64,000 nt of DNA from Octopus sinensis (lineage: Eukaryota), in contig NC_043003.1 of the NCBI RefSeq assembly GCF_006345805.1, forward strand, positions 53,878,001-53,942,000, given 5' to 3'. The stretch's first letter is position 1; the number at the start of each line of letters is the position of its first letter. A program made the position numbers and the translations under genes. The notes below the pieces were generated by a model, which did not search any database, was not told the DNA's origin, and saw only the letters and a program-made list of their open reading frames with translations. Shown here piece after piece: positions 14,460-60,819 of the stretch.

Positions 14460-15247
14460 TACAGGACACAAGGCCTGATATTTTAAGGCAAAGGGTTTAA
14501 GGATTATATTGACACCACTGCTCAACGGGTGCTTATTTTTCCTTCTCCGGGATGATGAAAATCAAAGTCGAACTAGTTGCATTTGTACTCAGAACGTAAA
14601 GCCGGATGAAATATCGCTAAACATTTTGTCCGTGGTGATAATGATTCTTATTTCTTTACTGCCCACAAGGAGCTACACACAGAAGAGACAAACAAGGACA
14701 GACAAATGGATTAAGTTGATTATATCGACCCCAGTGCGTAACTGGTACTTATTTAATCGACCCCGAAAGGATGAAAGGCAAAGTCGACCTCGGCGAAATT
14801 TGAACTCAGAACGTAGCGGCAGACGAAATACCTATTTCTTTACTACCCACAAGGGGCTAAACACAGAGAGGACAAACAAGGACAGGCAAACGGATTAAGT
14901 CGATTCTATCGACCCCAGTGCGTAACTGGTACTTATTTAATCGACCCCGAAAGGATGAAAGGCAAAGTCGACCTCGGCGAAATTTGAACTCAGAACGTAG
15001 CGGCAGACTAAATACCTATTTCTTTACTACCCACAAGGGGCTAAACACAGAGAGGACAAACAAGGACAAGTAAACGGATTAAGTCGATTCTATCGACCCC
15101 AGTGCGTAATTGGTACTTGATTTATCGACCCCGAAAGGATGAAAGGCAAAATCGACCTCGGCGGAATTTGAACTCAGAACGTAACGGCAGACGAAATTCC
15201 GCTAAGCATTTCGCCCGGCGTGATAATGATTCTGCCTGCTTGCCGCT
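14460..15247 (-). mobile_element. Nin-domain-like SINE family D with three 184-bp internal tandem units
   Basis: CCCCGAAAGGATGAAAGGCAAA at 14761, 14945 and 15129 (period 184); minus strand GCCTTTCATCCTTTCGGGGTCGAT..AAGTACC is a Nin-type core; tRNA-like head at 15180-15247. Confidence 0.85.
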
Positions 15248-25902: not shown

Positions 25903-26282
25903 TTCATTTGGGTTTTAACACTGGAATTTATTCTATTAAGCTCATCCACAGACCCATACTATCATACAGATGGTAATCCGGAGATTGCTTGTTATATCAA
26001 ACGCATGGCTGCATGCCTGAAATTCCACAAATAACAGCATTCATGAAGTGTGTATGTATCATGAGTGCTCGCTCATTTTCTTTGAAGCACGCGTAGGAAC
26101 TATAATATAAACTTGCATTTATCCTTATTTTTCCTTCTTTTGCATTCTAGTTCATAACTAGTAGCATTACTTTGTATAAGAGTCACTTAACAACTATAAG
26201 CGAAGTAGAATGGAATACGATAATCTTCGTGAAACTCTAAATATAACAGTAGCATTCGTACATCTATTTGTACACTCATTTT

Positions 26283-26317
<35 letters not shown>

Positions 26318-26792
26318 CAACAATTGAGGGTAAAATTAATTAATTAATCAATTTCACCAAGTATTCAGTATGCAAAGGGACCAATTAAGGCGAATTAAAA
26401 TAAATTAGTAAAATAAATTACTTTGCCGCATACTGAACTCATTAGAAATAATTTATTTTACTAAGCCCTTTTATATAATGTAATAATTTGAATCGCCTTA
26501 ATTGGTCCCTTTGCATACTGAATACTTGGTGAAATTGATTAATTAATTAATTTTACCCTCAATTGTTGAAATTATAATTCATCTCTCTCTATATAATGCC
26601 TCGGATTTTACCGAAAAAAGCATAGTGTTTACTGATTTTAACCCCGCTGGTGGAAAGGGGAGAGCAGAAATTCTTCGCTTGCATTTTTGAGTTTGCTGGC
26701 ACTGTTAGTTTCGAGCAGATCTTCAGAAGCGATAAGAAGCCGAAAGGGTATGCTCCCACTTTCAGTGTTTTCAAATCCAAACCAGGGAGTTC

Positions 26793-26845
26793 TGAGCTGA
26801 TGATAGAAATGTCGAGTTTGACTAATCTTGAAACGTACGTTCTCA
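26793..26845 (+). ncRNA. Type I hammerhead ribozyme motif (unit 1)
   Basis: TGAG-CTGATGA-T-AGA..GTC(GAGTTT)GAC..TCT-T-GAAA-CGTACG-TT-CTCA; palindrome ACGTACGT; GUU site (H=26841). Confidence 0.85.
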
Positions 26846-27352
26846 AATAACCTTTGCATTTGATTTTTTAATGTCTCTACCCCCATACTTTCGTGAGTTG
26901 AATTGAGCAAACACTATATGAGAGAGGTTTTCTTTAAGTATTAGAAATAGCTTTAAAAAAGTTTTTTTAGCTGCTATTTCTAATGAGTTCAGTATGCGGC
27001 AAAGTAATTATTTTACTAAGCCCTTTTATATAATGTAATAATTTGAATTCGCCTTAATTGGTCCCTTTGCATACTGAATACTTGGTGAAATTGATTAATT
27101 AATTAATTTTACCCTCAATTGTTGTTGAAATTATAATTCATCTCTCTCTATATAATGCCTCGGATTTTACCGAAAAAAGCATAGTGTTTACTGATTTTAA
27201 CCCACGCTGGTGGAAAGGGGAGAGCAGAAATTCTTCGCTTGCATTTTTGAGTTTGCTGGCACTGTTAGTTTCGAGCAGATCTTCAGAAGCGATAAGAAGC
27301 CGAAAGGGTATGCTCCCACTTTCAGTGTTTTCAAATCCAAACCAGGGAGTTC

Positions 27353-27405
27353 TGAGCTGATGATAGAAATGTCGAGTTTGACTAATCTTGAAACGTACGT
27401 TCTCA
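27353..27405 (+). ncRNA. Type I hammerhead ribozyme motif (unit 2)
   Basis: identical to 26793-26845, 560 nt downstream (H=27401). Confidence 0.85.
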
Positions 27406-27586
27406 AATAACCTTTGCATTTGATTTTTTAATGTCTCTACCCCCATACTTTCGTGAGTTGAATTGAGCAAACACTATATGAGAGAGGTTTTCTTTAAGTA
27501 TTAGAAATAGCTTTAAAAAAGTTTTTTTAGCTGCTATTTCTAATGAGTTCAGTATGCGGCAAAGTATTTATTTTACTAAGCCCTTT

Positions 27587-27623
<37 letters not shown>

Positions 27624-27665
27624 TATTATACATATATATATATATATATTTACATAAATAAGCAA

Positions 27666-27905
27666 TAAATTGAGAGATTCAATTGACAATCTAATAATAT
27701 ATTCATATTATAAGATAACATAAAAAATTATCTAAAAACCCCCAAAAGTCAACTATTTGTTTCGTCTTAAGATATATAAGGCGAAACAAATTGTTAGCAT
27801 TCTTGGTTCTTTAATAATTTTTTATGTTATATTATATTCATAGTATATTATGTTGTATTATAATGTAAATAAATTATTAGATTGTCAATTGAATCTCTCG
27901 ATTTA
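27666..27905. mobile_element. Fold-back of a PLE-like 3' terminus
   Basis: outer arms GAGAGATTCAATTGACAATCTAATAAT / ATTATTAGATTGTCAATTGAATCTCTC; central ATTTGTTTCGTCTTA / TAAGGCGAAACAAAT retains only the CGAAAC half of an HHR. Confidence 0.7.
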
Positions 27906-44978: not shown

Positions 44979-45044
44979 GTAGCTCAGTGGTAGAGCGTTC
45001 GCTTTGCATGCGAAAGGCCCTGGGTTCGATACCCAGTATCTCCA
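44979..45044 (+). tRNA. tRNA-Ala(TGC) sequence lacking its first ~6 nt (pseudogene/retrocopy)
   Basis: GTAGCTCAGTGGTAGAGC D arm; TTCGC-TT-TGC-AT-GCGAA anticodon arm; CTGGG-TTCGATA-CCCAG T arm; 3' acceptor strand TATCTCC-A; 5' acceptor strand replaced by (TATC)n. Confidence 0.85.
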
Positions 45045-48164: not shown

Positions 48165-49309
48165 TCACACTCATACCTCAACTACTCTTCCTCCCACCCA
48201 GAACACACACCAAGCTTTCCATCCCCTATTCCCAATCCTCCGTCTACGTAGGCTCTGTAGTGACGACCATGCTTTGAGACTCAGTCTCAACGTATGGCTC
48301 ACCACTTCACCCTACGTGATACCCCCTCACCACTATCCACACCGCCCTTGCCAGAGCATGGTCCGTGGACCGTGTATCTGCTCTCTCTCCCCGAACCCGC
48401 CCTGTAGTCTCCCGCCTCCCTTTTCCCCTCACTTACCACCCCACGACCTACCTCTCCAACGCACCATTCTTCGAGCTTTCCGTCATCTTCCAGTCCGACC
48501 GTCCACTTCACACCCCTCTTCCCTAACCGACCCCTCCCCTCTTTCAAACGAGCCCACAACCTTCGAGACCTTTTGGTCCATAGCTCCTCCCTGACCATAC
48601 CTCCCAACCCGGCTCGTTCCCCTGCTCCCGCCACACGTTGCTGCACTTGCCCTTACCTCTCTAACACCACCCTCCTCACTAGCACCCATCATCGACCCAT
48701 CCCATCATCCACTCCTTCACCTGCACCTCCAGAATATTATCTATTGCGTCTCTTGCTCTCTCTGCCATTCCTTGTACATCGGACAAACGGGACGCCGCTT
48801 GGCTGACCGGTTCGCGGAACACCTTCGTGACATCCACCTTGCGAACGACACACCGGTCTCTCGCCATTTCCGCTCCACCGGTCACTCCTTGCAACACCTA
48901 TCTGTGTTCGGTTTGTCCTTACACAGAGGCCATCCGGATTCCCGTTTGCGCCGTGAACAGGAATTAATCTTCTCTCTCGCTCTTATACGCCATTTGGTCT
49001 CAACTCCCCCCCACCCCCCCCCCTCCCTCATCTAACTCCCCTCCTCCCTCCTCCTCCACCTACCTTTCCCCCCGACCCCTACTTCTTCAGTCCTTCATCC
49101 TTTCACCCCTACCCCCTTCCCTTCTCCCCCTTCCCTCTTCCCCTTCCCTCTGCTCCCTCACTCCCCTTCTCTCTGTCCCCTCTCCCCCTCCCCCTTACTT
49201 CTCCCCCCTCCCCCTTACTTCTCCCCCCTCCCCCCCTCCCCTCCCCTCCCCCTTTCTCCTCTCTCCACACTACCCACACGACTTTACACTTCACATCATA
49301 TATGATGTG

Positions 49310-60410: not shown

Positions 60411-60415
<5 letters not shown>

Positions 60416-60811
60416 GAGGGTAAAATTAATTAATTATTAATCAATTTCACCAAGTATTCAGTATGTAAGGGGACCATTTAAGGCGAATTCAAATTATTAC
60501 ATTATATAAAAGGGCTTAGTAAAATAAATTACTTTGCCACATACTGAACTCATTAGAAATAGTAGCTAAAGGAGTTCTGAGCTGATGATAGAAATGTCGA
60601 GTTGACTAATCTTGAAACGTACGTTCTCAAATAACCTTTGCATTTGATTTTTTAATGTCTTTACCCCCATACTTTCGTGAGTTGAATTGAGCAAACACTA
60701 TATGAGAGAGATTTTCTTTAAGTATTAGAAATAGTTTTAAAAAAGTTTTTTTAGCTACTATTTCTAATGAGTTCAGTATGTGGCAAAGTAATTTATTTTA
60801 CTAAGCCCTTT

Positions 60812-60819
<8 letters not shown>
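60411..60819 (+). mobile_element. Second locus of the 560-bp retrozyme-like family (inverted piece 60411-60570 plus forward piece 60571-60819)
   Basis: highly similar to 26311-27594; same 3' end CCCTTTTATATAAT-(TA)n. Confidence 0.9.
60578..60629 (+). ncRNA. Type I hammerhead ribozyme motif
   Basis: TGAG-CTGATGA..GAAA-CGTACG-TT-CTCA; loop II is 1 nt shorter than in the 26793 copy. Confidence 0.85.

Follow-up and report, generated by a model that had tools for sequence, protein, structure and literature searches.

The window (the whole 64,000-nt stretch of DNA that was analysed) carries two insertions of a repeat with a hammerhead motif, the larger of which lies between two (TA)n runs. The features are given below in window coordinates, with the outer ends of the arms assigned to two putative priming sites, A and B.

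26287..26313, no strand: left (TA)n target run, read directly
26311..26450, minus strand: inverted arm of 140 bp whose outer end lies at priming site B, with 18 nt lost across site A
26453..27594, plus strand: direct arm comprising about 2.04 units, with its outer end at priming site A
26789..26851, plus strand: type I hammerhead motif 1, with core 26797-26803, A6 at 26800, GAAA at 26830-26833, palindromic stem III and a predicted cut after 26841
26842..27401, plus strand: cut-to-cut monomer, 560 nt against 555-559 nt for most units in the genome, strongly structured as RNA (predicted fold)
26940..27135, plus strand: priming module with a hairpin, a stem enclosing site A (27034) and site B (about 27135)
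27349..27411, plus strand: type I hammerhead motif 2, with core at 27357, A6 at 27360 and a predicted cut after 27401
27595..27660, no strand: right (TA)n target run, read directly
60412..60570, minus strand: inverted arm of the second insertion, ending near site B
60571..60819, plus strand: direct arm of the second insertion, with one hammerhead (core at 60582, predicted cut after 60625), ending at site A

The two units of the direct arm are identical at 581 of 587 columns (99%), with a period of 555-560, and have their cores at 26797 and 27357. This confirms the original prediction of two near-identical head-to-tail units with hammerheads, and the 140-bp inverted piece, the (TA)n flanks and the further copy at 60.4 kb are likewise as predicted. 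Mis-assembly of the tandem, which would have undone the prediction, is ruled out by the same tandem form at dozens of loci. Within the inverted arm, a short duplication (26396-26420) takes the place of about 18 nt that span site A precisely, which would fit slippage of a B-primed copy at that point. Other parts of the window contain a decayed piece resembling a Penelope-like element (PLE) endonuclease region (48730-48972; 31% identity, E 4e-6), a partial tRNA match (44980-45036; Rfam RF00005, 47 bits) that is possibly the head of a tRNA-derived repeat, three tandem copies of a 184-bp repeat (14649-15197), and a telomere-like hexamer run internal to the contig (29659-29799).

The unit is non-coding, as had been claimed. 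Its longest stop-to-stop frame is 111 aa, no Pfam match over the cut-off was obtained in the six frames scanned, and the ORF with reverse transcriptase (RT) and GIY-YIG endonuclease that defines an autonomous EN+ PLE is absent from it. Judged by eye, one frame (26547-26690) resembles a glutathione S-transferase N-terminus; we rejected this reading, since Pfam returned nothing and the frame arises only because the first unit has lost one base. We likewise set aside a TATA-like word near 26591, which is not conserved among the other subfamilies and around which arm ends do not cluster.

An exact 22-mer from the hammerhead has 2,804 matches in the 2.72-Gb genome, against none for the control, so that the motif is not a chance occurrence. 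The first 100 of these matches occupy 47 loci, from which we estimate roughly 1,300 insertions. Copies lie dispersed as arrays of 1-14 units. Measured from cut to cut, most units are 555-560 nt long (99 full units from 37 of 60 loci), and the GC content is 35%. Subfamilies are 85-99% alike, and units differ by a median of 6 within loci versus 13 between loci. Loci L031-L050 and L213-L217 were picked as long arrays, whereas L051-L090 are the first 40 loci of the 22-mer listing; pieces below 78% identity or under 50-60 nt were left out. Counts of arm ends, cut crossings and core integrity exclude L072, a duplicate of L071, and figures for within-array variation and GC exclude L041, L049, L051, L072 and L084. 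L071 and L072 are one insertion with identical flanks, present twice in inverted orientation 0.86 Mb apart, and represent a segmental or assembly duplicate. The family is also covered by contigs of runs coded as three different organisms (A, B and C). Over window positions 26200-27700, A>G and T>C changes exceed C>T and G>A in contigs of runs X2 and X9, which we guess to be RNA, and one loose end carries a run of T>C relative to a genomic subfamily. Such changes, seen without matched DNA and under a differing organism code, would fit A-to-I editing of the inverted-arm hairpin.

Structure and conservation of the hammerhead

The hammerhead has a stem I of 4 bp that continues beyond an internal loop, an interrupted stem II followed by GAAA, an 8-nt palindrome providing a two-pair stem III, and a GUU cleavage triplet. 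The base of stem II is U.U rather than G-C in the main subfamilies and A.A in another. The G10.1-C11.1 pair of canonical type I motifs is thus lacking in the 560-nt family, while a G-C is present in a second, related family (family 2, described below). This base pair is normally G-C in type I hammerheads (PMC4209133). An Rfam search of the window did not call the hammerhead, either at the gathering score or at E up to 10. The earlier description of an intact type I ribozyme therefore holds for the core motif and not for a fully canonical structure, given the U.U base, the GUU triplet and the missing Rfam call. Of 223 copies, 210 have an intact core; the subfamilies differ from one another at the free position 7.

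Relative to shuffled sequences, the predicted RNA fold of the monomer has a z of -6.7 when linear and -7.1 when circular (25 shuffles), and the active hammerhead fold is predicted to lie 4 kcal/mol above the minimum. Across eight units, 8 pairs of the fold show two-sided and 25 show one-sided compatible changes, and 16 are broken in at least one unit. By analogy with axolotl and mussel retrozymes, cleavage might proceed in a dimer through the palindromic stem III, with ligation by a host ligase. The axolotl motif HHR_Amex2, which has the same U.U and two-pair stem III, cleaves weakly alone and better as a dimer (PMC7229834). Counting against the explanation preferred below are the missing G10.1-C11.1 pair and the GUU site; of nine predicted Xenopus retrozymes, eight failed to cleave in vitro (10.64898/2026.07.22.740005).

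Insertion ends and the candidate Penelope-like partner

On the 3' side of the RNA, arm ends cluster at two sites, A at about +191 to +209 after the predicted cut and B at about +283 to +294, with typical outer ends at +193 and +290, respectively. Among 62 two-armed insertions, 57 combine A with B, one has A+A, one has B+B and three have one aberrant end (A+B pairing 57/59, p 6e-15). Each site is rich in A and U and grades into the TA flank, and 72 of 73 A ends adjoin TA repeats. By contrast with these fixed positions, inner arm ends are scattered over the whole unit, and arm lengths are continuous rather than unit multiples. LINE-1-type twin priming is ruled out because the inner arm ends are random. 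An inverted 5'-truncated arm, a tail at one end only and a bias towards (TA)n targets are all found here and characterize PLE mobilisation, in support of the earlier claim of a young, high-copy family with PLE-type insertion marks. The A+B pairing is the Penelope 'tail' signature, but spans about 95 nt, versus the 30-40 bp described for PLE tails (PMC8557442). In an anole PLE, two adjacent RT starts define the tail, and both target strands are cut and extended (PMC11167929).

The same ends bear on whether the arrays were born at insertion. Local array growth has been discussed as a model (10.64898/2026.07.22.740005), according to which single units insert and arrays later expand by unequal crossing-over, as satellites do. 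Variants common to non-adjacent units and the periodic patterns of long arrays (lag 4, see below) agree with this model. However, a locally amplified satellite would consist of whole units without fixed retroposition ends, whereas here both arms are multimeric, inner ends are random, outer ends are fixed and arm lengths are continuous; moreover, L033, with 11 pieces on two arms, has zero shared-minor sites and 2 singletons. Local exchange may alter old arrays but leaves their birth unexplained, and we regard it as a very improbable origin of the family.

We consider it likely that the family is a non-coding 558-nt hammerhead repeat forming tandem insertions with fixed ends in (TA)n, copied in trans by a PLE from ribozyme-uncut RNA, most probably circles. 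The copying enzyme would be a Penelope-like RT-endonuclease, probably of the Neptune clade, that introduces a nick into each strand of a (TA)n run. Of the two resulting target 3' ends, one would prime synthesis at site A and its partner at site B, aided by 4-6 nt of AU-rich matching to the target, and each cDNA would proceed round or along the template for a randomly varying distance, averaging about 0.7 kb and reaching up to 7.5 kb. Head-to-head joining of the two cDNA ends would produce the inversion. The template RNA would be uncut at the ribozyme and is most likely a circle.

The genome contains several young Neptune-like families that have RT and GIY-YIG domains, uninterrupted frames of about 780 aa and pLTR hammerheads of their own. 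They too end in (TA)n, but the tails read are about 25-35 nt long rather than 95. Their pLTR hammerheads (L051, L125, L146, L147, L164, L169) show the U3-A8 core swap known from PMC4209133, and every one of them has a separate palindromic stem III. Two of these families (L125:1105-4706; L169, L173, L181) have an upstream ORF of 410-480 aa without a Pfam match over the cut-off, which overlaps the RT-EN frame at a conserved T-run slippery word and fits a -1 frameshift; an optional frameshifted ORF1 is described in PLEs (PMC8557442).

An autonomous partner with the priming module was not found in 92 PLE loci (best 150 of 11,741 and 5,029 candidates scored). At these loci the module occurs only in separate insertions (L105, L148, L155, with L168 being the same place, and L177), so that we infer a PLE partner rather than identify one. 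Likewise, the unit abuts a PLE ORF, as the original prediction had asked, in none of the 60 unit loci or 92 PLE loci that sample either set. Two apparent exceptions were dismissed. L051, which resembles a PLE ORF between pLTR arrays, is a Neptune-like element that has a pLTR of its own and is flanked by two insertions that arose independently and differ in haplotype, and the supposed partner pLTR at L155 is actually an insertion of family 2 into the TA run that follows a PLE.

Family 2 (L155:2590-2870, L183-L212) is ORF-less, about 575 nt long and represented by 1,922 first-look candidates. It is about 65% alike over the priming module, has the same two priming sites and ends, and shows a compensatory change in the stem enclosing site A. 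Its hammerhead is canonical, with a G-C stem II base and a long stem II, and lies at about the same distance upstream. A piece at L177:8043-8250 is maybe a third, more distant relative. These data help to assess whether the unit is instead the pLTR of an unsampled autonomous PLE, with arrays derived from its ORF-less deletion form. The PLE-type ends would be expected in that case, the scored PLEs are the best 150 of the two candidate sets, and in Xenopus retrozymes match PLE termini, with 24 of 57 families matching Repbase entries, nearly all of them PLEs (10.64898/2026.07.22.740005). Nevertheless, unit joins unit without an ORF in 99 full units from 37 loci, and at L051, L105, L148 and L155 the nearby PLE ORF is set apart by a TA run or unrelated DNA. 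Furthermore, the common module and geometry of ORF-less family 2 suggest that the lineage diverged as a non-coding unit. A pLTR origin thus appears highly unlikely.

Template form and the A6 hot spot

The cut site is crossed 272 times by 145 arms, while four of the 147 arm ends come within 6 nt of it, versus 3.2 expected. Cut linear monomers are therefore not the usual template. The arms read through the cut site, which does not support the copying of a released linear monomer, one of the RNA forms in the original prediction. One arm at L148 begins exactly at the cut, with a short stutter, whereas a similar end at L088 is an alignment artefact. Among mapped arm ends there is no fixed 5' end that would mark a transcript start.

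Locus-specific variants are common to all units and both arms of an insertion, suggesting that each array derives from one template lineage at insertion. In L033 (11 pieces, both arms), L038, L042 and L044, no variant is confined to a subset of units, as a monomer circle predicts. The patterns of four other loci are not predicted by a pure monomer circle: L036 has four variants repeated in register on both arms, L032 and L214 have variants with periods of 4 and 2, respectively, and L031 is a mosaic. Over nine long arms, lag 4 is in excess (16 observed versus 7.4 expected, p 0.007 uncorrected). Periodic or in-register variants can arise from multimeric templates, from gene conversion at a later stage or from polishing errors. 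The in-register test on all two-armed loci gave 0.71%, against 0.99% off register, a comparison confounded by position in the unit; in-register sharing is clear only in L036 and L053. On balance, we lean slightly towards a circle, monomeric or a small multimer, as the template, and regard an uncut linear multimer as a realistic possibility of less than even probability.

Whether the ribozyme cuts at all is a related matter, since the hammerhead could be a non-cutting relic, with uncut read-through transcripts as the sole template. Four insertions have A6 changed in most or all cores seen, indicating that an intact core is not required in every template, and the insertions with A6 changed in all cores seen (L218) agree with a relic. 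So do the non-canonical stem II base, the GUU site, the lack of an end pile-up at the cut and the in-register sharing in L036. In the anole PLE, uncut RNA is the main substrate and hammerhead cleavage is unneeded for insertion in vitro (PMC11167929). Yet subfamilies that are 85-97% alike keep the core while position 7 and loop II change, family 2 retains a hammerhead despite a different stem II, and HHR_Amex2 cleaves with the same U.U and two-pair stem III (PMC7229834). In addition, without a rolling step arrays would be expected to shrink each generation. We therefore find a relic unlikely.

The core position A6 is an apparent mutation hot spot. In the fetched arrays, units depart from the majority of their own insertion at 0.44% of sites, and A6 departs in 7 of 186 (6 loci), the highest rate once two positions bordering a homopolymer are set aside. 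In these arrays, no changes occur at C3, U4, U7, G8, A9, G12, A13 or A14, and one occurs at G5. Genome-wide, A6 is changed in 48 copies from 35 loci (to G at 17 loci, T at 14 and C at 4), compared with 2,120 exact 19-mers. The corresponding figures are 10 copies at 7 loci for A9, 5 at 5 for the stem I A and 8 at 6 for free position 7; the excess of A6 over these three neighbouring positions (35 loci versus 5-7) has a p of 4e-10 by loci. The variants occur on several haplotype backgrounds, suggesting recurrent changes, and often affect one unit per array, but sometimes all cores seen (4/4 in L218, 2/2 in L050).

A single A that changes variously to G, T and C is reminiscent of a modified base being misread by RT. 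For m1A followed by U, high T and low G are reported (PMC4787781), and m1A thus fits the A6 changes only in part; A-to-I editing could supply the G changes. Selection for cleavage-dead templates should raise other core positions too, which is not so. Of the loci with A6 changes on one strand, 24 of 34 are on the reverse assembly strand (p 0.04), a bias that leaves room for an assembly artefact. The host might chemically modify A6 and so keep the ribozyme off in the circle, with the PLE RT misreading the base about 2% of the time and leaving a genomic record, although we consider this distinctly unlikely. If true, it would explain how animal retrozyme circles avoid self-cutting, and the family would serve as a natural record of rolling reverse transcription that starts from either strand of the target. 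We found no description of hammerhead modification in retrozymes in the open-licence literature. Provided that the hot spot is real in raw reads, it hints at ribozyme silencing in vivo, a question left open in PMC7229834.

Relationship to known retrozymes and Penelope-like elements

The family has a hammerhead in at least two consecutive units, no coding capacity, a size within the published range and GC below 45%, and by these sequence features belongs to the known class of non-LTR retrozymes. Members of this class consist of type I hammerhead repeats in tandem, and PLEs have been proposed to copy them from circular RNA (Cervera and de la Pena 2020, PMC7229834). The original prediction took 560 nt as unusually long and the system as undescribed. 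Neither view is supported: the published range is 51-972 bp, with a fish mean of 650 bp (10.64898/2026.07.22.740005), and retrozymes as non-autonomous PLE partners are already in print. The preprint of Li et al. (10.64898/2026.07.22.740005) ties retrozymes to Xenopus PLE pLTRs and found cleavage in 1 of 9 elements tested; its sampling included no mollusc. We found no description of the 560-nt family, or of comparable end mapping, in the open-licence literature. In the retrozyme papers (PMC7229834, 10.64898/2026.07.22.740005), PLE mobilisation from circular RNA is proposed rather than demonstrated. The 560-nt family adds direct genomic evidence in the form of paired PLE-type starts, arrays that existed from the moment of insertion, and reverse transcription that ran straight across the ribozyme site. 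The family also offers a defined 558-nt RNA, two mapped starts and young candidate enzymes for in vitro work. Its value lies in a clean record of retrozyme insertion and one unexplained hot spot.

The family shares with metazoan non-LTR retrozymes non-coding tandem units of low GC with one type I hammerhead each, thousands of copies and the presence of PLEs in the same genome, and with axolotl HHR_Amex2 specifically stem III and the U.U stem II base. It differs in that its insertion ends are mapped and point to PLE double priming, its arrays are born multimeric and often inverted, and it has no match to a sampled pLTR; its cleavage and its circular RNAs are predicted features. Similarities to EN+ PLEs of the Neptune clade and to the anole Poseidon PAc (PMC8557442, PMC11167929) include the inverted 5'-truncated arm, the one-end tail, two RT starts, (TA)n targets and a hammerhead upstream of the starts. 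Unlike these elements, the unit is without an ORF and has a tail of about 95 nt versus 30-40. The Poseidon PAc start, as described, is not homologous to its target, whereas both starts of the 560-nt family match the TA target over 4-6 nt. Non-autonomous Chlamys PLEs such as MRC1 (PMC8557442) are also non-coding, multicopy, arranged head to tail and located in microsatellites. According to the same source, however, the Chlamys elements resemble their autonomous partner at the 3' end and are mostly without hammerheads, whereas the 560-nt family carries a hammerhead in its repeating unit and no partner match was found for it.
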